A stretch of DNA of 64,000 nucleotides from a virus. Lineage: Duplodnaviria; Caudoviricetes. A program made the position numbers and the translations under genes. The stretch is taken from the IMG/VR virus record IMGVR_UViG_3300042294_003246; one strand, 5' to 3'. Positions 14,076 through 63,245 of this stretch are shown here, in pieces. The notes beneath the pieces were generated by a model that was not told the origin of the DNA, ran no database searches, and was given only the letters and a program-made list of their open reading frames with translations. How positions within the stretch are numbered: the stretch's first letter is position 1; the number at the start of each line of letters is the position of its first letter.

Positions 14076-14939
14076 ATGAACAAGTTAATTAAAGAAGAAA
14101 TACTAAGAATAAATGAGTTAATGAATACAAAAATTCTTAACGAATCGGAATATAAAGAATGCTCAAGATTTTCAGATTCTCCACAGAAATTACTTGTTTG
14201 TAGAAAAATCGCATCACTTAAAAGTTGGTTACACAAAGACGATGGATTTGGAATGAAAAATGTTATAAATAATAAAATTGAAGATTTAAAAACCGACATT
14301 CCTCAAAACTTAAAACAACAATTTATTCAAGGGGCAAACTTATTGTATTCACTAAATAAAATAAATGAAAGACAAAGGGATTACTTTATAGATAATAAAG
14401 TTAATTCAGCTAAATTGGTATACATAAACGGTGATTGGCAATTAATTAATAAGTTAAACACAAACTATTCTGATTTGGCAGAAATGTTAACAGATATGAT
14501 TTATAAAGGTGGAGATAGGGCTAGACCAATAATTCAAAATATTATTAGAGATCCTAAAGCTGCTTTGTCATCAATACAACCCAAAATAATAGAATTAGTT
14601 GATAAGTATTTTGAGGATCCTAATGTGTTAATTGACTATACAAAAAATATAGAAAGATCAACATCTATAGGTGAAATTGCTGAAAAACAAGTTGAAGATA
14701 AGTTAATCACAAAAGGTTTTACAACCGATTACGCTGGAGGTAATGGCGATCTAATCGATATGTCTTTTGGGACAGATTTAATCATGACATCACCGGAATA
14801 CGGGACAAAAACAATCCAAGTAAAAAATTCTGAAAAGGCTTGGAATAAGTCTGATGAATATCCTTACGTTGATTGGGTTATAATTTCAAACCCTTTTACC
14901 ATTTATGATAATAAAACAAAGGAAGTTGTTGAATTATGA
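14076..14939 (+). CDS. leader-bearing protein with putative PD-(D/E)xK nuclease C-terminus
   Basis: MNKLIKEEILRINELM leader; GEIAE...D..FGTD...TIQVK. Confidence 0.55.
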   Translation: MNKLIKEEILRINELMNTKILNESEYKECSRFSDSPQKLLVCRKIASLKSWLHKDDGFGMKNVINNKIEDLKTDIPQNLKQQFIQGANLLYSLNKINERQRDYFIDNKVNSAKLVYINGDWQLINKLNTNYSDLAEMLTDMIYKGGDRARPIIQNIIRDPKAALSSIQPKIIELVDKYFEDPNVLIDYTKNIERSTSIGEIAEKQVEDKLITKGFTTDYAGGNGDLIDMSFGTDLIMTSPEYGTKTIQVKNSEKAWNKSDEYPYVDWVIISNPFTIYDNKTKEVVEL

Positions 14940-15496
14940 AAATAATAATATCAGAACACCAATTTAATTTTCTTAACGAAAGTGATGTTAATAGAAATAT
15001 TGATGCTATCAAAAAGTATTGGAAAAGTGAATTGAAAAAAGGAAATCAAATTAGATTTAATAAAGACGAACTTGAATATTGGGGTATTATTAAAACTTCA
15101 GATGAAATACATGCTCAATTAGCATTTCAGATATTAGTTGGAGATGAGGAGTTCGCTAAAAAATTCATAAACAAATTATTAAATAAAACATTTTCAACAA
15201 AAGACTTTAGTGATAGAATTGTAGGTGGTTATGATTTTGAATGGATTATTACTCAAATGAATTATCAAGATTTTGATTTCTTTTTGTATGGTCAAACACT
15301 ACCAGGTGGAACTGTTAGTCTAATTATGATGGATGGTAGAAATCTGACTTTACAGGAAGCTTTAGAAGACGAAGATATTGGTTGGGAAATTCAAGAGGAA
15401 GTTAACAACGTTGTTCAGGACTGTATGAACGAAATAATTTTACCGGCCACAGGTTATGATGTAGAAGTTCCGGTTATTTATATTGCAGAAGAATGA
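14936..15496 (+). CDS. MKIIISE-leader family protein
   Basis: MKIIISEHQFNFLNES. Confidence 0.75.
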   Translation: MKIIISEHQFNFLNESDVNRNIDAIKKYWKSELKKGNQIRFNKDELEYWGIIKTSDEIHAQLAFQILVGDEEFAKKFINKLLNKTFSTKDFSDRIVGGYDFEWIITQMNYQDFDFFLYGQTLPGGTVSLIMMDGRNLTLQEALEDEDIGWEIQEEVNNVVQDCMNEIILPATGYDVEVPVIYIAEE

Positions 15497-15879
15497 AAAT
15501 AATAATTTCAGAACGACAACAAAAGTTATTAACCGAGTCAAAAAAACTTGAGTCGGCACAAAATCTTATTGATCAGGCATTTGAGGAATTAAGAGAAAAC
15601 TGTGAAAAAAATTGGGTTGAACAATATGCTTGTGATCAAATGGAAACCGTTGAAGAGATTAAAGTTGTTGCATCTGAAAAAGGATCAGCGACCACAAGAG
15701 GTCAAAAAACTAATTTTTGGTTGATTGAAGTTGACATATATTATTCATCATTAGGATATACACCTTTTGAAGATTTTATTTATCAAATCCAATGGGAAGT
15801 TAGAGAAATTGTCGGATCAAGAAATATTATTATAACCATCCGAGGTACTATAAACTCAAACAAAGACCTAAACTGGTAA
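15493..15879 (+). CDS. MKIIISE-leader family protein
   Basis: MKIIISERQQKLLTES. Confidence 0.75.
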   Translation: MKIIISERQQKLLTESKKLESAQNLIDQAFEELRENCEKNWVEQYACDQMETVEEIKVVASEKGSATTRGQKTNFWLIEVDIYYSSLGYTPFEDFIYQIQWEVREIVGSRNIIITIRGTINSNKDLNW

Positions 15880-16322
15880 TGAAAATAATAATATCAGAAT
15901 CACAATATAATTTACTTTTAGAATCAAAGTTGAAACAAAATCTTAAACAGGAAATTAAAGATTTTGGAGTAAAAGATACTGCTGAACTTGTTAATGGTTT
16001 CGATAATTTAATGGAAATTTTAAACATAAATTCTCCGATGGATTTTTTACATTTGTTTGATGACTTGGATGTTGTTCAAAGTGAAATGGACCCTGATTGG
16101 ACTTTATTTCGATATAAACCAAAACATAATTTGATGGTTCACAATAGAAAAAATAGAACTGTTTTCATTAATTACGAAGAAATTTGGAAACCTTTATTTG
16201 ATACTGGTCTTTTCGATCCTGACATAAAGGAACTTACAAAAGAGTGGTTGTCTAGTGTCTACAACTTAAGGGGAGTCACAACCGAAAGGTTTTATCAAGC
16301 TTCTCCATGGTTAGTTGTCTAG
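15879..16322 (+). CDS. MKIIISE-leader family protein
   Basis: MKIIISESQYNLLLES. Confidence 0.75.
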   Translation: MKIIISESQYNLLLESKLKQNLKQEIKDFGVKDTAELVNGFDNLMEILNINSPMDFLHLFDDLDVVQSEMDPDWTLFRYKPKHNLMVHNRKNRTVFINYEEIWKPLFDTGLFDPDIKELTKEWLSSVYNLRGVTTERFYQASPWLVV

Positions 16323-16336
16323 TGTCTACAATTTAA
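16247..16336 (+). repeat. 23-bp direct repeat pair, one mismatch
   Basis: GTTGTCTAGTGTCTACAA(C/T)TTAA at 16247 and 16314. Confidence 0.85.
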
Positions 16337-16347
16337 AAAAATAGAAT

Positions 16348-16749
16348 ATGAAAATAATAATTACAGAATCACAAGTTAGTCTTCTCAAAGAAAATTCCAT
16401 TGTGGATATGGATCTTCAACAACTATATGACAGGGCCATAAAATTAAAAAAAGTGGTTTCTAAAAATGTCCAAAGAGAGTTGGAAGATTATTCTTGGTTT
16501 GATGGATTACAGGTAAGTATTGATAGAGATTGGGGAGGACTACCTTATTATTTTTTTAACATAAAAACAAATTTGTCCCTAACAGAGGATGAATTTTATA
16601 GTCAAGAATTAGGTGATGAAATTTATGATAAAATTGGTGATGTTTTTGGTCACTTTTTTCCAGAGGTTAATAAAAATACACAATATAACTTAACTGGTGT
16701 TTGGGATGCTTCTATAACAGACAGACATGGTTATGTAACTCACATTTAG
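16348..16749 (+). CDS. MKIIITE-leader family protein
   Basis: MKIIITESQVSLLKEN. Confidence 0.75.
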   Translation: MKIIITESQVSLLKENSIVDMDLQQLYDRAIKLKKVVSKNVQRELEDYSWFDGLQVSIDRDWGGLPYYFFNIKTNLSLTEDEFYSQELGDEIYDKIGDVFGHFFPEVNKNTQYNLTGVWDASITDRHGYVTHI

Positions 16750-16764: not shown

Positions 16765-17454
16765 ATGAAAATCATCATTTCAGAAGATCAACAAAAAGTA
16801 TTACTTGAATCAAAACAAATTGATTCAGTTCAAAATCTTGTTGATATGGCGGTTGAAGATTATGTTGAAGGTTGTTCTAGAAGACATGCATTTAGAAATC
16901 TTGAACTTGCACTTTGTAAAGGGTTCAAGAACGGAACAACAAAACTTAAAGTTTTAGAAGTAAAAAAAATACACGACCATTATGATGTAAAACTTTCTAT
17001 ACACACAGATCAAGAATGGTTTCAAAGAGCGGACTTTCAAGATTTTGAAATCACATTAATACTTAAAGTTGCAAATATAATAGGAACACACAAATATGGG
17101 TTTGATATTAAGGACATGGAATTAAATGATCGTGATGAAGAAGTGATTTCTGAAAGTCGTGAAATGAGTACTAAACTAAGACGAAGATTTAGTGAACTTG
17201 AAAAAATTGGAGAGTCAATAGAGTATCAAACTGAAATACAAGATCCATGTGATTTTGAGGATGAGAATGACTATGCTGACTATTGTATTGGACAAGGACT
17301 TTATTTTTATTACAACGATGATGAAGATGAAGACTATGAATATCCACCAGACGAAATGGTTGAGGTTAGAGATGAGGTAGAAGAATATTTAGAAGAAAAA
17401 TACCACAATTATTTAGTAGATATTTATAATGACTTAGTAGAAAACTGTAACTAA
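16765..17454 (+). CDS. MKIIISE-leader family protein, two modules
   Basis: MKIIISEDQQKVLLES; internal VISES; TATTTATT at 16753-60. Confidence 0.75.
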   Translation: MKIIISEDQQKVLLESKQIDSVQNLVDMAVEDYVEGCSRRHAFRNLELALCKGFKNGTTKLKVLEVKKIHDHYDVKLSIHTDQEWFQRADFQDFEITLILKVANIIGTHKYGFDIKDMELNDRDEEVISESREMSTKLRRRFSELEKIGESIEYQTEIQDPCDFEDENDYADYCIGQGLYFYYNDDEDEDYEYPPDEMVEVRDEVEEYLEEKYHNYLVDIYNDLVENCN

Positions 17455-17759
17455 TGAAAATACTATTAACAGAAAAACAGGCCGATAGAATATTCAACGA
17501 AAAGATTGAATGCGAAAAGTGCGAACACTCTTGGAAAAAAGAAAATGATGACAAACATCCATTTCTTTGTCATGATTGTGGGTGGGACCAAAAAAAAGGT
17601 CTTTACGATAAAGAAAACTTATTTAAGTTTTGGAAAGGAAAATTATCTAAAGAACCAATTGAAGAAAAGTGGTCTGAAAAATATAAAAGATCAATCAACT
17701 GTAATAACCCAAAAGGTTTTAGTCAAAAGGCTCATTGTCAAGGGAGAAAGAAAAAATAA
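17454..17759 (+). CDS. leader family protein with Zn-finger and basic Cys module
   Basis: MKILLTEKQADRIFNE; CEKC...CHDC; EEKWSEKYKRSINCNNPKGFSQKAHC. Confidence 0.7.
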   Translation: MKILLTEKQADRIFNEKIECEKCEHSWKKENDDKHPFLCHDCGWDQKKGLYDKENLFKFWKGKLSKEPIEEKWSEKYKRSINCNNPKGFSQKAHCQGRKKK

Positions 17760-23681: not shown

Positions 23682-24599
23682 ATGAAAGTTTCACTTACAG
23701 AAGAACAATTTCAAAGAATCCAAACTAAATTCGTTTATGAAAGTATTATAGATGACATGGTGTTCAAACTATCATTAATCATAGAGAATGATGGTAAAAC
23801 CGAACCAGACATGGAATGGGACTTTGAAAATGTTAAAAAGGATATTGATTTAGCAAAATCTTGGGTTCAAACAAAAGAAGATGCCAAAGAGTTTTTACAG
23901 ACTTTGTCTAATAAAATAAAAAACCTACCTTCTCAAATTAAAAGAAAAATTATCAAATATGTGATTTTTTCTTTAATTGGTCTTATTAGTATTGGACAAA
24001 TAAAAAATTATTTAGAACCACCACTTGAAACTGCAGTTAAACAAGAAAAAGAAATTATTAAAAATGTCGTTAAGGATTTAAGGATTAGAAAGTCATCAGA
24101 CAAATTATTAAATCATTTAAAATGGGAAGAAGGTTCAATAATCCATAAAGGTGAACCAGTATTAACGGCTTATAATCTTGGTGATGGTGCAAAAACAATT
24201 GGTTATGGTCATGCTGTGTTTCCTGATGAAGAAGAATCGTTTGAATTTCTTCCAAGATATAATAAAATCATTTCAGGTAAAACCAAAATCACAAAAGAAC
24301 AAGCAGAAACACTACTTAAAGACGATATTAAAGAGGCAGAAAGTATTATCAATAGAATACTAGATCAGTGGGAAGAACAAGGAATTACGCCACCAATAAC
24401 TCAAAGTATGTATGATGCAATGGTGTCTATGGCATACAACATGGGACCTGGTATTAGAACATCCGATTTTATCCAATATGTTAAACGAGGTGATTTGGAA
24501 GGGGCAAAAAAGGAAATACTAAACACAAGTTCTCACATGTTTAACGAATACCCTGGTTTGAAAACAAGACGAGAAAGAGAATATAAAATGTTTGGGTAA
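23682..24599 (+). CDS. GH24 phage lysozyme with N-terminal leader domain
   Basis: LKWEEG...AYNLGDGAKTIGYGH; DAMVSMAYNMG; RREREY; leader MKVSLTEEQ...FVYES; TATTTATA at 23671-78. Confidence 0.85.
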   Translation: MKVSLTEEQFQRIQTKFVYESIIDDMVFKLSLIIENDGKTEPDMEWDFENVKKDIDLAKSWVQTKEDAKEFLQTLSNKIKNLPSQIKRKIIKYVIFSLIGLISIGQIKNYLEPPLETAVKQEKEIIKNVVKDLRIRKSSDKLLNHLKWEEGSIIHKGEPVLTAYNLGDGAKTIGYGHAVFPDEEESFEFLPRYNKIISGKTKITKEQAETLLKDDIKEAESIINRILDQWEEQGITPPITQSMYDAMVSMAYNMGPGIRTSDFIQYVKRGDLEGAKKEILNTSSHMFNEYPGLKTRREREYKMFG

Positions 24600-31487: not shown

Positions 31488-34325
31488 ATGAGAGATTTAA
31501 TAATTCAAGTAATAACTGAAGAATCTAAAAAACTACTTAAAGAAAGTGGTATCAGAGATATTAAAAAACTTTCCAAAAGATATCAAATGGCCAAAATCTA
31601 TTTTCATCAAGATTTAGATGGAGTTACCACGGCATTGGCAATGAAAAACTATTTGGAAAACAACGGAATCAAAGTTGTTGATGCCGAAATTATTCAATAT
31701 GGATCAAAAGAGTTTGCAATTCATAAACCTGAAGGTGAAGGTGATATAATGCCAGTCTTAGTGGATTTTGCTCACGGTAAACCGATGTTTGTAATTCACA
31801 CAGATCACCACGACACTCAAGCTGGTGTAGAACAGGGAACATCAACAAACTTCAAACCATCAAGATCGAATGTTGAAACAATTTCACAATCAATTTCACC
31901 AAGAGATATTTTTAGTCAAGACGATATCGAAACAATTTCTATGATTGACTCAGCAGATTTTGCAAAACATGATATTACTCCACAACAAGTTTTGAAATAT
32001 CTATTCCAAGTGGATAAAACAAAAGGAGTTAAAGAAAATAAAAAAATGATGGGACTTGTTGCTAACAAGTTATTATTAGCGTTTAAAAACAAACCTGGGT
32101 TTTTGAAAAAGTTAGTTATGGATGCAAAACCATCACTTCAGAGTATTTTATTAAATATAAAAGATATAATGGAAAAAGAAGGTTATGCGTCAATAGACCA
32201 ATTGATAAAAAACCAAGAGTCCTATATTGAATCAAGAAAAGAAAAAGGTGTTACTTATGAAGATGGTATTATTTCACAATATACATTAGGACCAACGCAA
32301 AAATCAGGTGGATATGATCGTTACACACCATTCATCAATCATCCTGACGCTGAGTTCTTAGTGACAGGACTTCCAATGGGAATGGTTCAAGCATCTTGTA
32401 ATCCATATAAAAAAGAAAGAGCGTTAAAGGGTGTTGATTTAGGTGAAATAAAAAATGAGGTATTAGAAAAGTTTAGACCTGAATTAGAAAAACAAAGAAT
32501 TTCATTTGGAACACTTAAAAGAATATCAGAAATGGACTCTGATAAAACTTCAGTTGGATTTACATTTAAAGACTTTTTAGCAATATATGGAAATTCACCA
32601 TCTTTGAAGATTTATGGGACAGAAAAACTTGAAAAATATCTTGATTACATGTCAAAAAAACTTTTCAAATCAATACCTGCGGAAGATAGAAAAGTATTTA
32701 ACAAGGCTTCTGTAAATGGTTATGATGTTATTATGGCTAATTCAGGAGGACATAAATGTATTACAAATATTTCTGGTATTAACTATCTATACTCTAATTC
32801 TAAGTTCCAAGAACCTGAACAAAGAGTTAGAGAATCTTATGTTGATTTGTTAAAAGACATTCAGGCTGAGTTTGTAAAAACTTTAAAAGAAAAAATAAAG
32901 TCTTCCACCAAAATACAAGAAAAATACATTACTAAAAAAAAAATATTAAGTAGCCCAACATCAATTCTTCTGAACCCAAAAAACCTAATAAAAGAACAAA
33001 AAATTAGTTTACCATTAATAATTAAAGATGGATATTCAGCACCCAAAGGGGATGCTGATGCTCTTCACTCATTTGAAAGAAGAAAAAAAGATGGTTTTGG
33101 GGGTAAAATGACAACAAAAATTGGAGAAAAGTTAAAAGAAATTTACAACGCAGGAATCAATCCCGACGTTGTGAATATAAACATAACAGTAGACTCTAAA
33201 AATTATACGGTTCAGTGGGAAGCAACTTTGGATGAAAGTCAAGATGGAAATGCTTACATGGGAGTTTCAACAAGAGGATCTGCAGGTGGTGGGGCCGATA
33301 TTAGAGCGTTGGGTCAAGTAGGACCATTAAAAAAAGAATTAGAAAAAATGGGAGCAAGAAACATTACACAAGTTTTAGACTTTAATAATAAGTCAGGAGT
33401 AAAAATCAGACAATATTTCTTTAAATACACTTTACCTGAAAAATATCCACCACATGAAACATCAGAAGGTTTATATTCTAAAACGACAGAACCGTCAGTT
33501 ATTAACTTATCCGACGACAAATCTTTAGAAACAAATCAAGGACAACTTGTTGGTGATATTTTAAATTTTGGATCGTTGAAGTCTAATCTTAGTCAAATAC
33601 TTAAAAACAAGATTGGTTCGTTGTTTGGATCCAAAGAAACATCAGATGAGGACGATACTAAATCAACACAGACATCAACCGCGACGGTTTCTCAAACATC
33701 AGGAAGTGATTCAGATTTTATGGAAATCACAAAAAAAGTGATTGCCAATTTTGAGGGCGGATATTGGAACGGATCAACGTCAAAAAATGAGAGCACAAGT
33801 AAATTAGGAATTTGTAAAAATCACCCGAAGGGAAGTATGGGTTCATCAACAGAAACTATGTTCGGGTTAGATAGATATAACGGTAACATAGAAAGCACCC
33901 CTGAGGGTAAACAATTTTTTGAAATTATAGACAACCAAAAAGAAGAATTGGGAATGGACGCTTTTTGTAAAAAATGGAAATGGTTATATCGAGGTGGTGA
34001 AAACGAAGAGGAATTAAAAGAATTGGCCGCTAAAATAATGAAAAGATCATTTGATAGAAATATGTCAAATTTTGTTAAAGACCAAGAAGTCAAAGACAAA
34101 ATTATGAAAAACAAAGGGCTTTTGGTTCATATGACTTATGCGTGTTGGAATGGACCTGGTTTCTTCAAAAAGTTTGCAAATGAATTAACCGATGCCGTAA
34201 AACAAGGGAAATCTGACTCAGAGTTGATAGATGTTGCGATTAATTCAAGGGCAAACACAAAATTGTTAAATAAAGATAAAGTGGCGGCGGCAATTAAAAA
34301 TCCCGACGGAATGAAGACCGCTTAA
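31488..34325 (+). CDS. 945-aa multidomain protein: leader + DHH phosphoesterase + unknown + putative muramidase
   Basis: MRDLIIQVITEESKKLLKES; YFHQDLDG, DFAHG, TDHH; late FEGGY...ETMFGLDR (GH108-like); TATTTATA at 31476-83. Confidence 0.75.
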   Translation: MRDLIIQVITEESKKLLKESGIRDIKKLSKRYQMAKIYFHQDLDGVTTALAMKNYLENNGIKVVDAEIIQYGSKEFAIHKPEGEGDIMPVLVDFAHGKPMFVIHTDHHDTQAGVEQGTSTNFKPSRSNVETISQSISPRDIFSQDDIETISMIDSADFAKHDITPQQVLKYLFQVDKTKGVKENKKMMGLVANKLLLAFKNKPGFLKKLVMDAKPSLQSILLNIKDIMEKEGYASIDQLIKNQESYIESRKEKGVTYEDGIISQYTLGPTQKSGGYDRYTPFINHPDAEFLVTGLPMGMVQASCNPYKKERALKGVDLGEIKNEVLEKFRPELEKQRISFGTLKRISEMDSDKTSVGFTFKDFLAIYGNSPSLKIYGTEKLEKYLDYMSKKLFKSIPAEDRKVFNKASVNGYDVIMANSGGHKCITNISGINYLYSNSKFQEPEQRVRESYVDLLKDIQAEFVKTLKEKIKSSTKIQEKYITKKKILSSPTSILLNPKNLIKEQKISLPLIIKDGYSAPKGDADALHSFERRKKDGFGGKMTTKIGEKLKEIYNAGINPDVVNINITVDSKNYTVQWEATLDESQDGNAYMGVSTRGSAGGGADIRALGQVGPLKKELEKMGARNITQVLDFNNKSGVKIRQYFFKYTLPEKYPPHETSEGLYSKTTEPSVINLSDDKSLETNQGQLVGDILNFGSLKSNLSQILKNKIGSLFGSKETSDEDDTKSTQTSTATVSQTSGSDSDFMEITKKVIANFEGGYWNGSTSKNESTSKLGICKNHPKGSMGSSTETMFGLDRYNGNIESTPEGKQFFEIIDNQKEELGMDAFCKKWKWLYRGGENEEELKELAAKIMKRSFDRNMSNFVKDQEVKDKIMKNKGLLVHMTYACWNGPGFFKKFANELTDAVKQGKSDSELIDVAINSRANTKLLNKDKVAAAIKNPDGMKTA

Positions 34326-45891: not shown

Positions 45892-46383
45892 ATGAAAAAA
45901 ATTGTATCTATTACTGAATCACAACTAACCAATATAATTAAACAAGTTCTCAAAGAAAATGAAACAAAAGATAGTTTAATTGATATGATCAAAGAAGATG
46001 GGTGGAAAGAATCATCCGGAATGGTTGGGGGTTCAGATAACTTAAAAAAATTGTCTGGTATTGATACCCCAATGAAATACCTTAGTTTATTCAACGACTT
46101 AAATAGTATGACCGATGAATTAAGACCTACTTGGAAAATGTTTTTTTATCATGAAAATAAACCAACTATGATGTTAATTTCAAATAAAGAAGAAAACAAG
46201 GTCTATATGAATATCGGGTTTATGGATCAATTTTTAAGGGCCTTTAATTTAGATCTTAATGAATCTAGAGAATATATTAAAGATTGGTTGTTAAACTCTT
46301 ATGATTATGACGTAGATACTTCAAATATTATTATGAGAAGAGGTTACCCATTTAATAATTTTAGAAGTGAGAGTATGACATAA
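45892..46383 (+). CDS. leader family protein
   Basis: MKKIVSITESQLTNIIKQVLKEN; TATTTATT at 45868-75. Confidence 0.75.
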   Translation: MKKIVSITESQLTNIIKQVLKENETKDSLIDMIKEDGWKESSGMVGGSDNLKKLSGIDTPMKYLSLFNDLNSMTDELRPTWKMFFYHENKPTMMLISNKEENKVYMNIGFMDQFLRAFNLDLNESREYIKDWLLNSYDYDVDTSNIIMRRGYPFNNFRSESMT

Positions 46384-46484: not shown

Positions 46485-46904
46485 ATGAAAATCATTATAA
46501 CTGAAGATCAATACGGACAATTAACTAACCTCGTTAAACGAGTGATTCGTGAAAATGACTCTATGTTAGAAAAAAACAAAAAGTTTTTAAAAAACAAGTT
46601 GGGTATTGATTTTACAAATGTCATTCAACAAATAACCTCAACTTATGATATTCCAATGGAATTTGCTGGATATATTTCACCTGGATTGATTAATCGTTAT
46701 TTAAACAAATATGGACCTATGTATCTTTTTGAACTTGACGGGAAAAAATATCTTTATTTAGATGTGGGGGATCATGAGAAGTTTATTGATGAGAATGGAA
46801 ATATATATATTGAAAATGAAATACCCGAACAACTTGGAATCGCAATAATGGGTTTAAGATTCTCAGATATTATTGATCTGTATTTTAAAGAAGAGGATTT
46901 CTAA
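46485..46904 (+). CDS. leader family protein
   Basis: MKIIITEDQYGQLTNLVKRVIREN. Confidence 0.75.
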   Translation: MKIIITEDQYGQLTNLVKRVIRENDSMLEKNKKFLKNKLGIDFTNVIQQITSTYDIPMEFAGYISPGLINRYLNKYGPMYLFELDGKKYLYLDVGDHEKFIDENGNIYIENEIPEQLGIAIMGLRFSDIIDLYFKEEDF

Positions 46905-47607: not shown

Positions 47608-48057
47608 ATGAAAATAATCATCTCTAAAGATCAGTATAGAAGAGTTCTTTTAAAATTCCTTGATAGTTTTATTAAAGGTTTCGATGTGGATCCTTACGAA
47701 GAAGAAAGTTCGTATAGAAATGTTAAAACTTCTGATGGAGATGACTTTGCAACTCTTTGGCATGATGAGCCAATTACTAAGGGGTGTAAAAGAGAATTAT
47801 CATTAGATAACCAATTTACTAATGATTTTGAAAGTTTTATTCCCATTAATAGAAAAAAAGTTTTTTCAGAAGTAGTTCTTGAATATTTCACATCAAAAAC
47901 GGGTATCAAATGTGATTGTGTTGAGTTTAGTTATTTTACAGGAAAATATAAAGAATTAGAAAGGTATGATGATGATTCAGATGAGGTAATCTCCTATACT
48001 GATAAAGAATTCGATCACTACCATTATAAAAAACCTAAAAGATCTAAAAAACGATAA
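47608..48057 (+). CDS. leader family protein
   Basis: MKIIISKDQY; TATTTATA at 47596-47603. Confidence 0.7.
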   Translation: MKIIISKDQYRRVLLKFLDSFIKGFDVDPYEEESSYRNVKTSDGDDFATLWHDEPITKGCKRELSLDNQFTNDFESFIPINRKKVFSEVVLEYFTSKTGIKCDCVEFSYFTGKYKELERYDDDSDEVISYTDKEFDHYHYKKPKRSKKR

Positions 48058-48396: not shown

Positions 48397-49083
48397 ATGA
48401 AAAAAATCGTTAGATTGAGTGAGTCAGATTTAACAAGAGTAGTTAGACGTGTAATAAACGAAGGGTTTTCAGATATCGATTGGACAAACATTTGGTTAAA
48501 ATTAAGAAGACTTTCTGAAAGTTTTCATTATCCTAATGATGACGGAATCATTTTTTCTTATGGGGGACTAGATTTTGAAATTTCAAAAGATGGGGATAGT
48601 TTGCATCTTATGGAATTTTATAGAAACCCAAGAGAGTGGGACTCAAAATATAGAGATGGAGAAGAAGTTTTGGAAAATTATTTTAATAAAATAAAAAAAT
48701 TTGTTGACGAGTTTAATGATAAATATGATTTCCCTTTTGAACTTATGTTTGAAATGGGACCACGATTTGAAATGATATTCTATTGTAATTTTGAAAATAA
48801 TCTATATGAGTCAAATATTACGTCGTCCGTTATTTCGATTTTAAACGAAGATCGTAGTAAAACAATTACAAAACCTAGTGGATTTGATAACTATAATAAA
48901 AAATGTAAAAATAAAACCAAAGGGATTTTTGACATTGTTTTAAATAAGGTTAGATTTTCATGTATGACAAGTGAGGATAATACAAACTCATTTAATTCAC
49001 GTGAATCAAATCCTTTTACGGGAAAAACCAGAGGAAATTATAATGTTAATGGAAATAATATTACATTATCAACCACCTTATAA
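48397..49083 (+). CDS. leader family protein, two modules
   Basis: MKKIVRLSESDLTRVVRRVINEG; internal NLYES, ILNED. Confidence 0.75.
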   Translation: MKKIVRLSESDLTRVVRRVINEGFSDIDWTNIWLKLRRLSESFHYPNDDGIIFSYGGLDFEISKDGDSLHLMEFYRNPREWDSKYRDGEEVLENYFNKIKKFVDEFNDKYDFPFELMFEMGPRFEMIFYCNFENNLYESNITSSVISILNEDRSKTITKPSGFDNYNKKCKNKTKGIFDIVLNKVRFSCMTSEDNTNSFNSRESNPFTGKTRGNYNVNGNNITLSTTL

Positions 49084-49115: not shown

Positions 49116-49784
49116 ATGAAACATTTATTAAACGATTTATCTAACGAAGAAAAAAATAGAATTAGAGAACAATACGAAGGTAGTCTGTTAGTGAATACCT
49201 CAAGATTTAAAAAACTTTTGGAATCTCACCTTGGTAATGTTAAACCATTACTAACCGAAAATCCAACAGGTGACACTGGAAATCAAGAAGTCGTTGGTGG
49301 AGGAGGTCAAGGCTCACCACAGGATGTATATTCTGTAACCGCAAGAATCCAAAATCAGTGTAGACCCGAGGCAGTAACTGCCTATAAATCCGAAGCACAA
49401 CAAGCACCTCAATTTGCAACAACAAACAAAGCAGGTCTTCCAGTTAAAATTGATGAAAAAACAATTGAGTTTACAAAAAAATTATATGATGGTATGACAT
49501 ATAAAGGAAATATAAAATATAGATATAATTGTGTAGATTTGGATAATTCAGCTACCGCAGTTGGGTTGAATGTTAATGCCGCCAAACCTAATGAATTTAC
49601 CGCAGTTCCTGCTTGGGTTGGAAATTATAAAACTTCGGTTATAACTCAGGCAAATCCTAAGGGATTTTTAAGATCTTTTTGCGCATATGCTCTTACTGAT
49701 ATACCAACAATAAATAATGTGAATAAAAAGTTAGAATATTGTTGTAAGGATGGATCTGGAGCTCAATCAAGTGTTCCTTGTTAA
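49116..49784 (+). CDS. leader family protein
   Basis: LSNEEKNRIREQY...LLES...LLTEN. Confidence 0.72.
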   Translation: MKHLLNDLSNEEKNRIREQYEGSLLVNTSRFKKLLESHLGNVKPLLTENPTGDTGNQEVVGGGGQGSPQDVYSVTARIQNQCRPEAVTAYKSEAQQAPQFATTNKAGLPVKIDEKTIEFTKKLYDGMTYKGNIKYRYNCVDLDNSATAVGLNVNAAKPNEFTAVPAWVGNYKTSVITQANPKGFLRSFCAYALTDIPTINNVNKKLEYCCKDGSGAQSSVPC

Positions 49785-50221: not shown

Positions 50222-51130
50222 ATGAAAAAGAATTTATTTGTATTATCGGAAAATGAAAAAAATCGGATTTTAAACATGCACAAATCCGCAACTAAACAAA
50301 ATTATGTTTTTGAACAAGCCGCACCGGTTGTAGATCCCAATAAACCAAATGTAGATGCTGTTACAGGAAACCAAGGAACTCCTGTTGTAGGAGCGGTTAC
50401 ACCTCAATCCTCAGTGTCTAATATCCCAACACAAACAGCACCAGCGGCAGGAGCGACTCCAGCGGCAGGAGCGACCCCAGCGGCAGGAGCAACACCCGAT
50501 AAAAAAACAATAATGTTACATGATCTTGATTATGATTATAAAAAAGAAGGTGACAAATACTTCTTTAAAATTAAGGCGGACGCTGTATCACCAAATTTAC
50601 AAAAACTTTTCAAACAGGGTAAGTTCAAAGATTTTACAGAGGCTAAACCAGGAACTAAATCATTTGACGCCATCAGCAAACTTAATTGGGCTAAAGGAGA
50701 TAAACTTGATGTAAAACCGGCGTCCTCAATGAAAGTATCGTCACCTAGTTTAACCGCATCTCCACAAGGAGGTGCTGCACCCGCAGCCGGATCAAACTCA
50801 ACAACATTACAAGACCCTGTTGGAGAAGCAAAAAAACTTATGCCAAATATTAGTTCATTAGATCCTGCGAAACAAAAAGAAGTTGCCACATGGTCAAAAT
50901 CACCGGCAGGAGAGTATATTCTAAAACTTCCGCCAGATCAGAGAGAAAAGGCTTTAGATAATTTAGAAAAGAAAAGTGGTGATCAAACAACAAAGGCATT
51001 AAAATCAGATATTAGAACCGCACTTGGAATGGCTGCCGACACGGCATTTCAAAGATTAGGTCAAGGAATAAAAGGAGCGGTTGCTGGATTCAAAGCAGGA
51101 GCTCAAGGACAACAACCACCAACAGCCTAA
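50222..51130 (+). CDS. leader family protein, low complexity
   Basis: LSENEKNRILNMH...VFEQ; PAAGAT x3. Confidence 0.75.
   Translation: MKKNLFVLSENEKNRILNMHKSATKQNYVFEQAAPVVDPNKPNVDAVTGNQGTPVVGAVTPQSSVSNIPTQTAPAAGATPAAGATPAAGATPDKKTIMLHDLDYDYKKEGDKYFFKIKADAVSPNLQKLFKQGKFKDFTEAKPGTKSFDAISKLNWAKGDKLDVKPASSMKVSSPSLTASPQGGAAPAAGSNSTTLQDPVGEAKKLMPNISSLDPAKQKEVATWSKSPAGEYILKLPPDQREKALDNLEKKSGDQTTKALKSDIRTALGMAADTAFQRLGQGIKGAVAGFKAGAQGQQPPTA
50441..50494 (+). repeat. 18-bp tandem repeat x3 (PAAGAT)
   Basis: CCAGCGGCAGGAGCRACN three times. Confidence 0.9.
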
Positions 51131-51137: not shown

Positions 51138-51620
51138 ATGAAAAGACTTATAATTACAGAAGACGAAAAAAAAAGAATCAAACTTCTTTATGAGCAATCA
51201 ACTTTTGTGAAAGATATGGCAAAAACTTTTAACTCATCTGAGGAATCTTTTTTGCCGTTGGATTGGTCGACTTTGGAAAAAACCGATCCTAAAAGGGCTG
51301 AGTATGGTCAAAATTTATCTAAAGTAAAAACCGCGTTTCAAAACTTCACAAATAAGGCGTGGAATGGTAAAACTGATATTTCAAAAACTATATCATATTT
51401 ACAAAACTATAATATCGATAATAAATACCAAAAACGATGGTTAGATTCCGCAGTTAAAACTTTACAACATTTACAAAACCAAATAAAAAGTAGCGATAAC
51501 ACCCAAAGTAAAACTAATACTACCACAACAAATACCACAACTAATTCTACAAACGTAACAACACCATCGTTTTCGGATTGGAGATCAAAATTAAATCAAC
51601 AGTTTGGCATAAATTCATAA
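51138..51620 (+). CDS. leader family protein
   Basis: MKRLIITEDEKKRIKLLYEQ. Confidence 0.72.
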   Translation: MKRLIITEDEKKRIKLLYEQSTFVKDMAKTFNSSEESFLPLDWSTLEKTDPKRAEYGQNLSKVKTAFQNFTNKAWNGKTDISKTISYLQNYNIDNKYQKRWLDSAVKTLQHLQNQIKSSDNTQSKTNTTTTNTTTNSTNVTTPSFSDWRSKLNQQFGINS

Positions 51621-52124: not shown

Positions 52125-52469
52125 ATGAAAAATAATTTAACAGAATCAGACATCAATAGAATCGTATTTGATGTTATAAATGAATCTGAAGAAGTAAAAG
52201 AAGGTTGGTTTAGTAATTTGTTTAAAGATAAATATACAATTTACTCGGAGGAGCTTGAAGAAATAATGCAAGATTTAATCAAAAACGTTTACTCCGATCG
52301 AGATATTATTTCCAACATCAAAGAACTATATTCCAAAATTCAAAGTTCTGATATGGATAGAAGAGACAAGAGAGAATTACTCGAAATAATGTATGAACTT
52401 TATCAGTTGATAAATGAAACTCAAACAAAGGTAAATCGATATATTCATAGATTACAACGATTAAGATAA
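52125..52469 (+). CDS. leader family protein
   Basis: MKNNLTESDINRIVFDVINES. Confidence 0.72.
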   Translation: MKNNLTESDINRIVFDVINESEEVKEGWFSNLFKDKYTIYSEELEEIMQDLIKNVYSDRDIISNIKELYSKIQSSDMDRRDKRELLEIMYELYQLINETQTKVNRYIHRLQRLR

Positions 52470-53291: not shown

Positions 53292-53633
53292 ATGAAAATC
53301 AACGAAGAATTAAACCAAATCAAATATCTTTTAGAGTATAAAAGAGGACAAGAAATTAACGAAATGGTTTTTTCTAATTTACCCGGTGTTCAGCCTGATA
53401 AAATGGATTATAGAAGACCAATACCTGATCCTGATATTATACCTGATTGTTTTACTCAAATGTTAAAATCAGATTTAAACATGGTTTCTTTTGATAAAAA
53501 CACGTTAAAAGATGAATCACAAAAAAGAGTTAATGGTGTTGATATGATTTTTAATCCTGATAGTCCATCTGACGAATTGGGTATTACAATAATAAAAGAT
53601 GGAAAACCTTTTTGTTTTGTAAAAAAATTTTAA
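53292..53633 (+). CDS. leader family protein
   Basis: MKINEELNQIKYLL...EINE; TATTTATT at 53281-88. Confidence 0.7.
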   Translation: MKINEELNQIKYLLEYKRGQEINEMVFSNLPGVQPDKMDYRRPIPDPDIIPDCFTQMLKSDLNMVSFDKNTLKDESQKRVNGVDMIFNPDSPSDELGITIIKDGKPFCFVKKF

Positions 53634-53685: not shown

Positions 53686-54198
53686 ATGGGAAGAAAAATT
53701 AGACTTACAGAATCTGAATTTCATTCTTTAGTAAGAAGACTTGTTCGTGAGGCTGAAGAAGAAATGATGTCAATTACAATGGATGATGAAGAATCCGAAG
53801 GAATGTCAAAAGAAGACACCGTTCATGCGGTTGCTGACTTCTTTAAAAGAAAATTAAGAAGATTAGATAGTGACGAAATCGAAGAACTTGAGGATATGGT
53901 TGTTAATTCTGAAACAGAAGATCTAACTGAAATGTTTTTAAGAGAAGACATTTCTGATAGAAAAAAATCTTTTAAAGAAAAGGCAATGATTCGTGGTGGA
54001 ATTGGTATGATGGGAGCAGGAATACTTGGAATGATTAGTCAAGCAATGGGTTATACTGATGCTGGAGACCTTATGATTGCGGTTCACGATTACGTTGACA
54101 AAATGGGTGGTGGTCCTGTGAGCACCGCAGTATTAATTGCTGGTTTAGTTATGGCACTTAAAGGTGCTGCTGACAGAGGCCTTAGAACAGGAAGATAA
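53686..54198 (+). CDS. leader family protein with hydrophobic C-terminus
   Basis: MGRKIRLTESEFHSLVRRLVREA; two Gly-rich hydrophobic segments. Confidence 0.72.
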   Translation: MGRKIRLTESEFHSLVRRLVREAEEEMMSITMDDEESEGMSKEDTVHAVADFFKRKLRRLDSDEIEELEDMVVNSETEDLTEMFLREDISDRKKSFKEKAMIRGGIGMMGAGILGMISQAMGYTDAGDLMIAVHDYVDKMGGGPVSTAVLIAGLVMALKGAADRGLRTGR

Positions 54199-59207: not shown

Positions 59208-59735
59208 TTAGATTCCTTTAATAAGGTTTATTGATTGTTTTAGGTATTCTTTAGCTCTTGGGGACGGAGTATATTCATCATCCTTAGTTTGAAGGTTTAA
59301 AACCCTTTCAATGTCCTTAACTAACTCAGTTCCGTGTTCATTTTCTTTATATAACTCGATGATCTTATCCATGGCTTTATTGCATTCACCTGTAGTCTCG
59401 TCATAATAGTTTTTATTCCTAAACTTATTCAAATGATTCATCATTTCATATGCCAAATGTGTTCCACCGTCTTTAATGTCTTTAAACAAACGGATATTAT
59501 TCAAAATCCCTAAAGTATCAACCATAGAGTTAACCCCTGTAATTCTTTTGGTAATCCCTGGTGTGTATTTATCAAATTCACCCGCTCTCCCGACTATTTC
59601 GTCTAGAGGCATAACATTTTCAGGAATACACTTAGGTTTTTCCTTTTTATTTTTTTTTCCTTCCATTTCGTTTTCTAAAAGAACTTTTCTAATGACTCTA
59701 TTTAGGTCACGGTTATTAAATTGATTTCGTTTCAT
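59208..59735 (-). CDS. leader family protein
   Basis: NRDLNRVIRKVLLEN. Confidence 0.7.
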   Translation of the reverse strand: MKRNQFNNRDLNRVIRKVLLENEMEGKKNKKEKPKCIPENVMPLDEIVGRAGEFDKYTPGITKRITGVNSMVDTLGILNNIRLFKDIKDGGTHLAYEMMNHLNKFRNKNYYDETTGECNKAMDKIIELYKENEHGTELVKDIERVLNLQTKDDEYTPSPRAKEYLKQSINLIKGI

Positions 59736-59789: not shown

Positions 59790-60161
59790 ATGAAAAATAT
59801 TAATGACATTATAAGGAAAGTATTGATTGAGTCATTTTTAAGACCTAAGTTTATTTTTGAGGATTTCTATGGGTCGGTTGAAGATGTTGATTTTTTAAAT
59901 GAAGCCGAATATCAAGGAAGAAAAGTTCAACTTGGTAAAATAATGCAGGGTGACGTAAAAAAGTTTAAGGTTTATGTTAAAAATGACAAAGGTAAAGTTG
60001 TTAAAGTTAATTTTGGTTTTGGTGGTAAATCAGCAAAAGGGAAAAGAATGGTTATTAAAAAAAATAACCCAGAAAGACGACGATCTTTCAGAGCAAGACA
60101 CAATTGCGATAATCCTGGACCAAGATGGAAACCAAGATATTGGGCTTGTAGAACTTGGTAA
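59790..60161 (+). CDS. leader + basic Cys module protein (DUF6321-like)
   Basis: IIRKVLIES...FLNE-AEYQGRKV...RRSFRARHNC..RYWAC; TATTTATA at 59763-70. Confidence 0.72.
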   Translation: MKNINDIIRKVLIESFLRPKFIFEDFYGSVEDVDFLNEAEYQGRKVQLGKIMQGDVKKFKVYVKNDKGKVVKVNFGFGGKSAKGKRMVIKKNNPERRRSFRARHNCDNPGPRWKPRYWACRTW

Positions 60162-60225: not shown

Positions 60226-60813
60226 ATGGAGAGTTATAGATATGACTCATTAGTTCGACAGATTATAAAGGATATTGTTCTTATGTATAAAAAAGAATCT
60301 GACGGGCATTTTTATTTACCCTACGATGTTGATGAAGAGTCTGACGAATACGACTTTAAAGACATATTTGTTTCTGTTGAATTAATTTTGGAAGAGTCAA
60401 ATACGGTTGACGATTTTTTATTAAACGCCGATTTTTATCCCGATGATGATACTATTGTTGTAAAAATAGTATATAATCCAGAATTTAAAACTAAAAATAT
60501 CTACAACATGGTCGGAGAATTAAACGAACTCATTGCACACGAACTTAGACATAGTCACCAAAAAAATACCGGTCTATTTGATTTGGATTCTGACATGGAT
60601 GTTGATGAAGAAAAAGGTTTCGAGTATTATACAAGACCTGAGGAAATTGACGCTCAATATTACGGATTCAAAAGAATGTCAAAAATCACAAAAAAACCTT
60701 TCGATGAATTAGTTAAAAATTGGTTCAAAAAGTATAAGGATGTTCATCAAATGGATGATTCTGAAGTTGAAGAAACTGTATCGATGATATTAAATTACAG
60801 ACCTAAGATTTAA
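60226..60813 (+). CDS. HExxH zinc-metalloprotease-like protein
   Basis: LIAHELRHSHQ...EEIDA; ATG 60226. Confidence 0.55.
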   Translation: MESYRYDSLVRQIIKDIVLMYKKESDGHFYLPYDVDEESDEYDFKDIFVSVELILEESNTVDDFLLNADFYPDDDTIVVKIVYNPEFKTKNIYNMVGELNELIAHELRHSHQKNTGLFDLDSDMDVDEEKGFEYYTRPEEIDAQYYGFKRMSKITKKPFDELVKNWFKKYKDVHQMDDSEVEETVSMILNYRPKI

Positions 60814-61423
60814 ACCTATCTATAATCTTTTTGACTAGCATATAAACAATATGTGATGTAAAAATCCCGCCTAAATAGTGTCCTACACCCATCGCTAATA
60901 ATTTAATTTGTTTTTCACCTATTGATAAATCTGAAAGATCTTTCAATATTGGAACTAATGGGACCAAAAACGTGTAGGCGATCATATTAGAGACTTTTGA
61001 AAAAGTTAAATTCAAACTTTCTAAAAAACCGAAAAGAGCATCTCTTAAATCATAGGATTTTGAAAGTGCTCTATCAAAAAACGTAATTAATTTTTTTTCT
61101 TTTATTAGTTCTAACACCTCACGTAATTTTTCCTTATTCGAGGAAAAAAAAGTTAAAATTATACCAAAAGATATTAGGGTTATGTCTGTTTCTGTTAGGT
61201 TTGGATATCTACCACTCATATATTTTGAAACAGGTCCCACAAATCCCCCTATTACAGAACCCCAAGTTCCCAAAAAAACAAAATCAATTCCAAATTGTTT
61301 TTTTACGTCTTCGATAATTTTTTTTGTAAAGTTTTTCGAATTAGTAAAAATATCCGACATGGCATTTTCTTTAGATTCTTGTAGAACTTTAATGTATTGC
61401 GATTCTGTTAAAATTATATCCAT
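60803..61423 (-). CDS. leader family membrane protein
   Basis: MDIILTESQYIKVLQES; several hydrophobic segments. Confidence 0.7.
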   Translation of the reverse strand: MDIILTESQYIKVLQESKENAMSDIFTNSKNFTKKIIEDVKKQFGIDFVFLGTWGSVIGGFVGPVSKYMSGRYPNLTETDITLISFGIILTFFSSNKEKLREVLELIKEKKLITFFDRALSKSYDLRDALFGFLESLNLTFSKVSNMIAYTFLVPLVPILKDLSDLSIGEKQIKLLAMGVGHYLGGIFTSHIVYMLVKKIIDRFKS

Positions 61424-61535: not shown

Positions 61536-62150
61536 ATGAATTCATACTTTTTTAAAATGAACAAACAAGAAAGAGAGAACATCTTGGATCAACATAAACA
61601 TGTATATGATGGTTATGTAACAAAATACAATCAACAATCAAACCAATATCCTCTTTATGTTCAGGATTTGGCAAATGATAAAAATGGTATTACGGTAAAT
61701 AATAAAGGATTGGTTAAGACTTATACTAACGTAGGTATTAATGAAGGTCTTTTAGATATGATTGCCGATGGGCCTATGGACTTAGAAAACGGAACGATAG
61801 ATATTGATAGTGTGAGTCAAACAAATTCAATCAATAAAAAAATGTTGGACCAATATTATCCATCACCCAACGAGGAAGAAGAAGAATTTGTAACCTATGG
61901 TAAAATCTCAGATGAAGAGGACATACCAAACACAAGCTTACAAAACTTAGATAGGTTTGAATATGATATTGACGAACTTGAGGACTATTCAGCGAGCAAA
62001 GATTATGACAATACAGACGAAGAATATTTAACTTACAGTGAAAGACTACAAGATACACTACAAAATGTTGATGAAGAAATACTACCTGAATTAGTTCAAC
62101 AATTGTATGAGTCGAGACACATGTTCGAAAGATTCAAAAAATACAACTAA
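61536..62150 (+). CDS. leader family acidic protein
   Basis: MNKQERENILDQH...GINE; TATTTATA at 61513-20. Confidence 0.7.
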   Translation: MNSYFFKMNKQERENILDQHKHVYDGYVTKYNQQSNQYPLYVQDLANDKNGITVNNKGLVKTYTNVGINEGLLDMIADGPMDLENGTIDIDSVSQTNSINKKMLDQYYPSPNEEEEEFVTYGKISDEEDIPNTSLQNLDRFEYDIDELEDYSASKDYDNTDEEYLTYSERLQDTLQNVDEEILPELVQQLYESRHMFERFKKYN

Positions 62151-62151
62151 A

Positions 62152-62451
62152 ATGGAAATTCAAGAATTGATTTTTTTTTATCTACACGAAAACACAAACA
62201 CCATAGAAGTTCAATTTAGATTAAATGTCGATTCTGAGGATGAAATTAGAATTGATAATATCAATTTAAATGAGGCTTCTGATTTTGGTTATGATTTGAT
62301 ATTAGAGGAAATTGAATCATATGACGATGATGACGAAGAAAATTTATATTGGTTTGATTCCCCATCAATTGACGAAGACAATCTAATTAGTTTTCTAAAT
62401 GAATATTATATAGTGAGCCCCGAAAAACTACCAAAACCCGAGTTAATCTAA
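62152..62451 (+). CDS. acidic hypothetical protein
   Basis: ATG 62152, 1 nt after previous stop. Confidence 0.65.
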   Translation: MEIQELIFFYLHENTNTIEVQFRLNVDSEDEIRIDNINLNEASDFGYDLILEEIESYDDDDEENLYWFDSPSIDEDNLISFLNEYYIVSPEKLPKPELI

Positions 62452-62948
62452 GGACCAACTCGAGTTAAAAACATGGTTGTGGTTTCACCACTGCTGTTTG
62501 AACCATAATCATAGCTTCCTGATGTTCTAATAACAAGACTTTCAGGACCATCATCAATTATTTTCCAAACTCTACGAGTTCCATCGTAATCAAAAACAAT
62601 ATATCCCAAATCATATACGTTTCTTTGACCATGAACGTAATATGTGAATTTTTTAGTCCAAGTTGTCCCACCACTGGGTAAATCAATAGGATAGAAATAA
62701 ATTACAGAATAGTCCAAAGCAAGTCTTGTAAACCCAACCTCAATAGAATCCAAAGGTTTTGTTTCACTTTCATTTACGTAAAGCGTTCCGGGGTAAAAAA
62801 CTTGGTTCAACCCTGAATAGTCTCGGTTTTCATAAGTAATTTTATCTATACGATATTCTCCACTTAAACTAAGAAGTGGTGGTTGTGCATACTTTACACA
62901 AGAGCTTATAACAAGAGATAAAATAAGAATTGATAAAATGTTTTTCAT
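62448..62948 (-). CDS. lipoprotein
   Basis: MKNILSILILSLVISS-C lipobox; TATATTTG at 62972-62965. Confidence 0.8.
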   Translation of the reverse strand: MKNILSILILSLVISSCVKYAQPPLLSLSGEYRIDKITYENRDYSGLNQVFYPGTLYVNESETKPLDSIEVGFTRLALDYSVIYFYPIDLPSGGTTWTKKFTYYVHGQRNVYDLGYIVFDYDGTRRVWKIIDDGPESLVIRTSGSYDYGSNSSGETTTMFLTRVGP

Positions 62949-63011
62949 ATGGTTTTAATTTCTACAAATATAAATATATTTTTTTAATTACAAGGACTAT
63001 TTATTAAAAAA

Positions 63012-63245
63012 ATGGAATTAGACGAAATAATTTATTTACTGAAAAGATATACAACAACCGAATCGAAAGATGAGATTGGAGAACAAGATGCTGGAGGATC
63101 GGGAGGTGGTGGCGGAGCTGCTTATCCTACGGTTACAAAATGGGAAACAGGACTAACGAGAAGTGTTGCAAATCAAATAGATTATAAGGCTAAGTGGAAA
63201 GATTTGAACAAACTGACTAGAGGGAAGGCAAATACTTTATTATAA
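63012..63245 (+). CDS. small leader-type protein
   Basis: EIGEQ then GGSGGGGG, KWETGLTR, RGKAN; TATTTATT at 62998. Confidence 0.68.
   Translation: MELDEIIYLLKRYTTTESKDEIGEQDAGGSGGGGGAAYPTVTKWETGLTRSVANQIDYKAKWKDLNKLTRGKANTLL

Follow-up and report, generated by a model that had tools for sequence, protein, structure and literature searches.

We analysed a 64,000-nucleotide (nt) stretch of DNA from a tailed virus of the class Caudoviricetes (IMG/VR record IMGVR_UViG_3300042294_003246), hereafter the window, in which about 30 proteins begin with a leader peptide ending in [LIV]-x-Glu. On balance, we regard these leaders as probably a greatly expanded, modular variant of the capsid-targeting system of phage T4, with about 30 late proteins most likely loaded into the capsid and trimmed there. 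A sequence-only reading of the same DNA had proposed a portable, shuffled N-terminal tag of this kind on otherwise unrelated proteins, and the analysis supports it.

To detect the leaders, we built profile hidden Markov models (HMMs) and compared them with all candidate N-termini of the window and of its relative G001, which together gave 43 genes with a match at the N-terminus. With three profiles and a threshold of E<0.01, a total of 26 window genes passed, including 24 of the 29 named in the sequence-only reading. A control set of 6,500 internal 36-residue segments from the same two sequences yielded only one mis-called start and one true internal copy, ruling out chance or low complexity as the source of the leaders. 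Of the matches to simple regular expressions for the leaders, 11 of 14 and 13 of 14 lay within residues 1-30, compared with ~2.3 expected. The N-termini first described were present at all 29 starts, with two corrections of position: for two minus-strand genes the low coordinate had been given, the true starts being 61423 and 59735, and the starts at 39273 and 53292 are internal ATGs within longer open reading frames (ORFs) that begin with TTG or GTG, each with TATTTAT just upstream. Five genes fell below the HMM threshold (17454, 31488, 14076, 39273 and 53292). The leader at 31488 is nevertheless backed by orthologues, and those at 14076, 39273 and 53292 form a further variant of the type NLQEQIxRIxEMMG, found in relatives too. 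The 29 genes are listed below, with a slash after the last leader residue.

14936..15496 (+): short-form leader MKIIISEHQFNFLNE/S; HMM E 1.9e-9
15493..15879 (+): leader MKIIISERQQKLLTE/S; HMM match; TATTTAT at 15475-15481
15879..16322 (+): leader MKIIISESQYNLLLE/S; HMM match; payload family with other or no leaders in relatives
16348..16749 (+): leader MKIIITESQVSLLKE/N; HMM match
16765..17454 (+): leader MKIIISEDQQKVLLE/S; HMM match; TATTTAT at 16753-16759
17454..17759 (+): leader-like MKILLTEKQADRIFNE/K on a zinc-ribbon protein; below HMM threshold
23682..24599 (+): leader MKVSLTEEQFQRIQTKFVYE/S; likely transmembrane segment at ~90-108, phage lysozyme domain at 161-300; TATTTAT at 23671-23677
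31488..34325 (+): leader MRDLIIQVITEESKKLLKE/S; DHH/DHHA1 phosphoesterase of 945 residues; TATTTAT at 31476-31482
34340..34759 (+): helix-only leader MKQKIRKILKE/E; HMM match
34759..35223 (+): leader MRNLIKQILKE/E; HMM match
35220..36089 (+): leader MRELIRYILKE/S; HMM match
36092..37120 (+): GTG start; leader MNQLRQHIKNVLVE/E; HMM match
37148..38392 (+): leader MDLKQHIKNILKE/E; zinc-ribbon mini-domain in the payload; TATTTAT at 37135-37141
45892..46383 (+): long leader MKKIVSITESQLTNIIKQVLKE/N; TATTTAT at 45868-45874
46485..46904 (+): long leader MKIIITEDQYGQLTNLVKRVIRE/N; TATTTAT at 46473-46479
47608..48057 (+): leader start MKIIISKDQYRRVLLKF, with no clear hydrophobic-x-Glu (h-x-E) end; TATTTAT at 47596-47602
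48397..49083 (+): long leader MKKIVRLSESDLTRVVRRVINE/G; TATTTAT at 48376-48382
52125..52469 (+): long leader MKNNLTESDINRIVFDVINE/S; TATTTAT at 52114-52120
53686..54198 (+): long leader MGRKIRLTESEFHSLVRRLVRE/A; likely transmembrane segment near 140-158; TATTTAT at 53663-53669
59208..59735 (-): long leader MKRNQFNNRDLNRVIRKVLLE/N; HMM match
59790..60161 (+): helix-only leader MKNINDIIRKVLIE/S; HMM match
60803..61423 (-): leader MDIILTESQYIKVLQE/S; HMM match
49116..49784 (+): EEKNRI-type leader MKHLLNDLSNEEKNRIREQYE/G; TATTTAT at 49094-49100
50222..51130 (+): EEKNRI-type leader beginning MKKNLFVLSENEKNRILNMH; TATTTAT at 50202-50208
51138..51620 (+): EEKNRI-type leader MKRLIITEDEKKRIKLLYE/Q; HMM match
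61536..62150 (+): EEKNRI-type leader MNSYFFKMNKQERENILDQH, kept in the orthologues of relatives G001, G006 and G009; TATTTAT at 61513-61519
14076..14939 (+): weak candidate leader MNKLIKEEILRINELMNTKILNE/S; below HMM threshold
39273..39548 (+): weak candidate leader MNLQEQISRIQEMMGVINE/Q, of a variant shared with G001 and G006; TATTTAT at 39261-39267
53292..53633 (+): weak candidate leader MKINEELNQIKYLLEYKRGQEINE/M; TATTTAT at 53285-53291

The leaders had originally been divided into three classes. The N-termini of all three are real, but they are not separate systems; each class is a variant, or one half, of a single strand-helix module. The long form, MKKIVRLTESDLTRIVRRVIxE, holds both the class 1 start (a hydrophobic run, then [ST]-E, x, Q/D/E) and the class 2 helix (h-h-+-+-h-h-x-E), and the class 2 and class 3 profiles each detect long leaders. 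The module is an extended strand followed by an N-capped amphipathic helix that ends in [LIV]-x-Glu. Across 15 aligned long leaders, E9 and E22 each reach at least 90% conservation, with I, L or V at P3 of E22, and structure prediction on the leader alone gave an extended strand at residues 1-8 and a helix at residues 9-25, with a predicted local distance difference test (pLDDT) score of 81. By chance, about half of proteins would have an h-x-E somewhere among residues 1-35; the significant feature is its fixed, aligned position rather than its mere presence. We also considered the N-terminal half of a ribbon-helix-helix fold, which has a similar strand and capped helix; the leaders, however, have no conserved second helix, which speaks against it.

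Where the module ends is best seen in the DHH enzyme encoded at 31488, for which we compared six orthologues, one in the window and five in relatives. Their leaders, 6-19 residues long, each end in [LI]-x-E directly at the conserved body, which starts with (S/G)G(I/L)R(D/N)I. They differ in both length and sequence, and the [LI]-x-E junction is their only constant feature.

Window: MRDLIIQVITEESKKLLKE/SG
G003: MKKGILVE/SG
G009: MRKNLILE/SG
G008: MKKIISE/GG
G007: MKLLKE/SG
G001: MKRLIKE/SG

Orthologue comparisons of this kind show the module ending exactly at the Glu. At the DNA level, homology between 31488 and its relatives starts at nt 43-67, close to where the leader of 57 nt ends. Leaders are also exchanged on conserved bodies. 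The G001 orthologue of 59790 has a body that is 90% identical and a leader swapped to MNMEIIISESQYKRLVLE/N, of the MxxIIISESQ type; the orthologues of 59208-59735 in G006 and G009 have bodies ~80% identical and variant leaders; 37148 and its G006 relative carry different leader types; and the payload family shared by 15879 and 45892 appears in relatives with a class 1, a class 2, a long or no leader.

The module is not restricted to N-termini. Many database proteins contain two or three copies of the motif, one N-terminal and the others internal, each ahead of a further domain. The proposal of a purely N-terminal zip-code did not predict such copies and needs correction on this point. To our knowledge, internal copies are not a property of the T4 capsid targeting sequence (CTS). 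They fit fused cassettes that would be cut apart in the head, and also an uncleaved, general docking helix. A protein of 488 residues in G001 (245877-247343, minus strand) illustrates the arrangement: its N-terminus, MRNIETHIDEIVSKVLAE/A, resembles class 2, and a complete copy of the leader, IQLTEDELIDLIEKIVNE/Q, lies internally at residues ~265-290.

The internal copies bear on the main alternative, in which the module is an uncleaved docking or oligomerisation element that gathers many late proteins at some shared partner, not the prohead, the Glu serving in binding rather than in proteolysis. That partner could be the cell membrane, a machine of the host, or a site where the phage assembles or replicates. 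We consider this explanation unlikely, yet the most serious of the alternatives: the module is an amphipathic, basic helix, it recurs in highly conserved form ahead of each domain in multi-domain proteins, its sequence is unrelated to the T4 CTS, and some payloads have transmembrane segments. The DHH orthologues argue the other way, as they keep a stub of 6-9 residues that is constant only in [LI]-x-E, too short for a docking helix and enough for a cut site. Leader-less paralogues exist, [LIV]-x-E is also found at the maturation site of the capsid protein, and a T4-type protease and an upstream motif shared with virion genes, both described below, fit the prohead better.

In the second part of the window (44001-64000), contigs of relatives at 90-95% identity link upstream regions or first codons that belong to different leader genes, for example 52125 to 61534, 53297 to 48394 and 46465 to 45865, with matching sides of 19-31 nt. 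Such joins may reflect the repeated promoter-leader sequence or a reshuffling of cassettes in relatives. The only runs labelled RNA-Seq are probably DNA and contain relatives of this 90-95% group as short contigs, so that they do not bear on expression or timing.

The head genes of relatives provide a candidate for the processing enzyme. G001 and many related contigs share a head module consisting of a large terminase, a T4-type portal, bS21 on the opposite strand, a Peptidase_S77 protease, an acidic scaffold-like protein of ~530 residues and a Gp23-family capsid protein. The order terminase, portal, S77 protease, scaffold and Gp23, together with the capsid-protein motif, identifies the lineage as T4-like. 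The protease belongs to the T4 gp21 family and aligns with gp21 over its core. The G001 capsid protein contains HLINE/ASS, which aligns with FLTE/AEIGG of T4 gp23 and MAKINELLRE/S of gp24 at their established cut positions. L-I-N-E followed by A or S is invariant in 31 distinct capsid-protein N-termini of the clade, while the residues just after vary. The S77 protease is encoded in G001, G002 and 11 of 20 leader-bearing viral contigs, among the latter in four of the five that reach 90% completeness; over all six leader-bearing contigs at least 90% complete it is present in five, the sixth being a shorter copy of two that encode it. Complex prediction for a G001-type protease with a leader returned a low-confidence model (score 0.00, partner pLDDT <40), which weighs neither for nor against the proposal. 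Cleavage after Glu is documented for T4, where propeptides of 10-20 residues act as capsid targeting sequences (PMC5694885, PMC3012670), and for the gp21-family proteases of giant phages (PMC5694885).

The sequence-only reading had also noted TATTTAT ahead of many leader genes. It lies within 45 nt upstream of 19 of the 29, and most others sit in tight tandem arrays behind such a gene. Over all genes, sense TATTTAT occurs at most 45 nt upstream of 30 of 106 in the window and 77 of 367 in G001, against 10 and 29 in the antisense control. It is enriched at leader genes, with an odds ratio of ~5.7 (p = 3e-4 in the window and 1.7e-5 in G001). In G001 it also precedes the genes for the tail sheath, a baseplate wedge subunit, the head-tail adaptor, a scaffold-like protein and the protease. 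As judged from sequence, this pattern would fit late co-expression of leader genes with virion genes.

Selection acts on the peptide, because conserved leader residues vary in their synonymous codons. This variation, together with the internal copies, argues against a DNA-level element as the explanation of the leaders, and we rejected that reading. The near-identity of the first 21 nt in genes 14936-16348, remarked on earlier, is real and mostly expected from AT-rich codon bias. It enters an explanation that we judge improbable, namely that the cassette (TATTTAT, a short or absent 5′ untranslated region and A-rich first codons, perhaps read by phage-bS21 ribosomes) is a 5′ module for expressing late genes in a host that does not use Shine-Dalgarno sequences, and that the peptide is largely a by-product spread by recombination. 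The placement of TATTTAT, often just 4-6 nt ahead of the ATG, would suit such a module, as would the bS21 gene in the clade's head module (PMC9723584) and the shared first 21 nt across the 14936-16765 array. It would not account for the varying synonymous codons at conserved residues, for conservation that extends 15-22 residues into the protein with near-invariant Glu positions, for recurrence of the peptide far from any start codon, or for bona fide late structural genes that have the upstream motif without the peptide.

TATTTAT is the reverse complement of the T4 late box core and often ends 4-6 nt before the ATG, with close-set sites at 16753-16759, 23671-23677, 31476-31482, 39261-39267, 46473-46479, 47596-47602 and 52114-52120. 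If it is a -10-like element, late mRNAs may be leaderless or nearly so; alternatively, it may be a translation-initiation signal in a host without Shine-Dalgarno use.

The closest known counterpart is the T4 CTS of internal proteins, reportedly described by Mullaney and Black in 1996. In T4, the CTS MKTYQEFIAE is carried by IPI-III and Alt, gp24, gp67 and gp68 have propeptides of 10-20 residues, and gp21 removes them after Glu (PMC3012670, PMC5694885). As in the leaders described here, unrelated proteins start with a short tag that terminates in hydrophobic-x-Glu, the lineage encodes a protease of the gp21 family along with a capsid protein bearing the same motif at the homologous cut site, and the genes with tags vary and are shuffled. 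In both, the genome repeats the tag DNA; in T4, two identical 30-nt copies encode MKTYQEFIAE. Unlike the T4 CTS, the leaders reach 22-25 residues and comprise two modules, each able to occur alone. They number 26-57 genes per genome, compared with ~4-8 in T4, also lie internally between domains, and are so far known from sequence alone. Encapsulin cargo peptides and the Dar proteins of phage P1 are looser parallels, in which unrelated enzymes enter an HK97-fold shell by means of a short terminal peptide or along an ordered packaging route. Encapsulin tags, however, are usually C-terminal and uncleaved, and Dar loading depends on specific proteins rather than on a shared cleavable leader. The jumbo phages phiKZ, 201phi2-1 and SPN3US carry tens of head-internal proteins, some with transmembrane helices, have paralogues with identical N-termini, and use a T4-related protease that cuts after Glu, there at S/A/G-x-E or A-x-E (PMC5694885, PMC10052503). 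Their propeptides are mostly long (>100 residues) and share no portable tag, P3 is small (A/S/G) where it is hydrophobic here, and they fall outside the T4 gp23 capsid lineage of the window's relatives.

If the leaders are capsid-targeting tags, genes behind TATTTAT(A) would make precursors late in infection, and residues 1 to 6-25 of each precursor would form the short extended strand and N-capped amphipathic helix. The tag would then dock the precursor onto the scaffold or core of the assembling prohead. A gp21-type (Peptidase S77) protease would cut after the conserved Glu of [LIV]-x-E at the helix end, possibly with a second cut after the Glu of [IL]-[ST]-E at the helix start. The mature payloads, among them a membrane-anchored lysozyme, a DHH phosphoesterase, zinc-ribbon proteins and many orphans, would remain in the head with the DNA and exit with it at infection. 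The cassette would be portable, exchanged among payloads and, in multi-cassette proteins, placed between domains so that these could be cut into separate cargo.

Several points weigh against this mechanism. The sequence-only reading had proposed a capsid-targeting and injection system; the tag, the protease family and the capsid-protein motif bear it out in part, while docking, cleavage, packaging and injection are steps that we infer. A gp21-family prohead protease, as that reading anticipated, is encoded in relatives and was not located for the window's own phage, the 80 best loci of a metagenome scan coming from other contigs and the traced variants (P0024, P0067 and P0376) lying on other phages of the clade; moreover, the co-occurrence of leaders and S77 is confounded by phylogeny. 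The leaders resemble the T4 CTS in pattern only, without sequence homology, the profile finding nothing in T4, and they are basic where the CTS is acidic. Some members, such as 47608 and 61536, have no well-placed h-x-E. Internal copies are common and well conserved in multi-domain proteins, and the cargo count per genome (44-57 in G006 and G009) is far above that of T4. TATTTAT also lies ahead of a DnaB-like helicase gene in G001, so late timing is not proven by the motif. Finally, the GenBank phage collection gave no significant leader match, and no cultured carrier was found.

Beyond the leader, the proteins are as unrelated as had been claimed: BLASTP of the sequences after residue 28 found no relation, with the sole exception of 15879 and 45892. 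Most of the payload assignments made earlier stood up. The lysozyme of 23682 matches Pfam at 1e-20, and this protein combines a transmembrane segment with the lysozyme domain, a make-up known for ejection proteins. The DHH payload of 31488 has HQDLDG at 40-45, DHH at 106 and GGH at 420, motifs also found in the G001 orthologue and in line with the DxD, D, DHH and GGGH signature of DHH/DHHA1 phosphoesterases; its Pfam DHH match is weak (E 0.0035, below the cut-off), and Atlas gives a lead toward DHH. Membrane payloads are represented by a likely transmembrane segment in each of two proteins (23682 and 53686), and a nuclease-like payload was not confirmed. The leader family itself is absent from Pfam and PHROGs, as are most payloads, almost none of which these databases recognise.

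The nature of the payloads also bears on the least probable explanation that we considered, in which the leader is the recognition sequence of a modifying enzyme, for example a radical S-adenosylmethionine (radical-SAM) enzyme, that serves many substrates in the manner of ribosomally synthesised and post-translationally modified peptides. Numerous small, unrelated proteins sharing one short conserved N-terminus are typical of leader-guided modification. The payloads, however, include large folded enzymes of up to 945 residues, and in neither the window nor G001 are the leader genes flanked by a conserved enzyme gene. The radical-SAM form of this explanation was rejected, since five leader-bearing genomes, four of them at least 98% complete, contained no PF04055 match, while the control matched in 14 of 14 reference genomes.

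Two further observations concern individual payloads. A zinc-ribbon-like unit, C..C..W.W....DDKHP[FY]LCH.CG, and a neighbouring 35-residue block are common to several leader proteins (window 17454-17759 and 37148-38392, residues ~220-290; G001 from 171563 and from 192274). The unit is 70-88% identical to short stretches in hypothetical proteins of many T4-like phages of Synechococcus and Prochlorococcus, and looks like a mobile mini-domain. A leader protein of ~156 residues is conserved beside the capsid gene across the clade (G001 102905-103375; L032:11912-12388). Its body motif, RYMFFSNLEQ, starts a few variable residues after the Glu, making it a candidate conserved head-internal protein.

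To determine how widely the leader occurs, we searched 1.84 billion proteins with a long-leader profile (n=15) and obtained 5,962 cluster representatives at E<=1e-3. Among the top 150 of these, 133 match from residue 1; in the remainder, either the protein extends further upstream and a Met stands where the motif begins, or another copy occupies the N-terminus. IMG/VR contains at least 491 confirmed leader-bearing stretches, whereas cellular genomes (185,579 species representatives) gave two matches, on contigs of 3-4 kb from metagenome-assembled genomes (MAGs); the tag is confined to viruses. In complete relatives, leader genes make up 8-14% of all genes: 57 of 397 in G009, 44 of 381 in G006 and 30 of 367 in G001. 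Neither the leader profile nor the leader-rich proteins had a match in Flavobacterium phage immuto, Microcystis phage Mel-JY01, P-TIM68 or T4, and the record of an uncultured 484-kb phage gave a single weak leader match. A literature search on the leader peptide strings returned nothing relevant, and we found no published description of a leader system of this kind.

More tentatively than the T4-like assignment itself, we suggest that widespread uncultured T4-related jumbo phages may use one strand-helix cassette with a protease site as a general loading-and-release tag (8-14% of genes, up to 57 per genome, ~6,000 clusters) that also splits fused 'polyprotein' cargo in the head. This could be the largest and fastest-shuffled injected effector arsenal known for the T4 lineage, and the tag alone might list it from sequence. 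Head-carried, injected proteins are normally learned only through proteomics of cultured phages. If the tag marks head cargo, injected proteins of abundant uncultured lake phages could be listed without culture, dozens per genome, including the DHH phosphoesterase, the membrane-anchored lysozyme and thousands of orphan families. Such a list would point to new early-acting counter-defence or takeover functions. The T4 capsid-targeting principle would also prove scalable about tenfold and usable in modular, even internal form, which would have practical relevance where foreign proteins are to be packaged in capsids.

The window has 30% GC and dense co-oriented ORFs, and no tRNA genes were found in its 64,000 nt. 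Several contigs from lake metagenomes, including a JGI contig of 297,378 bp and an NCBI MAG contig of 107,086 bp, encode one of its proteins without a single difference. Distant relatives are present in IMG/VR, G001 (294,914 bp, 98% complete) among them, which matches the window in scattered stretches at 68-94% nucleotide identity. The window belongs to the uncultured, T4-related, bS21-encoding jumbo phages of freshwater Bacteroidota, a clade published by Chen et al. in 2022 (PMC9723584), to which we assigned it because in its relatives the bS21 gene sits reversed between the portal and protease genes. This position, on the opposite strand, is kept in all relatives (L032:5240-5434; same place in L033-L046 and L132-L141). 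The published phages likewise have the module terminase-portal-bS21 (reverse)-protease-capsid and genomes of 293-331 kb with 31-34% GC from lake metagenomes; their description does not mention N-terminal leaders, promoters or internal proteins (PMC9723584).

In two contigs of the clade the Gp23 capsid gene is called as two or three pieces with small ORFs (78-99 residues) between them (L034:8684-10569; L041:8684-10567), which points to insertion of an intron or homing element, or to an artefact of assembly or a frameshift. Within the window, proteins encoded at 26609-28815 and 55364-57814 have N-terminal signal peptides and PKD, CHU_C or ALK_LTK_GRD matches, and are possible phage-encoded type IX secretion substrates. 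At 29230-30743, a UmuD/LexA-like gene (Peptidase_S24) precedes one for a UmuC/DinB-like translesion polymerase of the IMS family. Two ORFs with apparently GIY-YIG-like N-termini, at 2708-3556 and 4712-5545, lie on either side of a 364-residue ORF (3562-4656), with the upstream motif 14 and 30 nt ahead of them, respectively.

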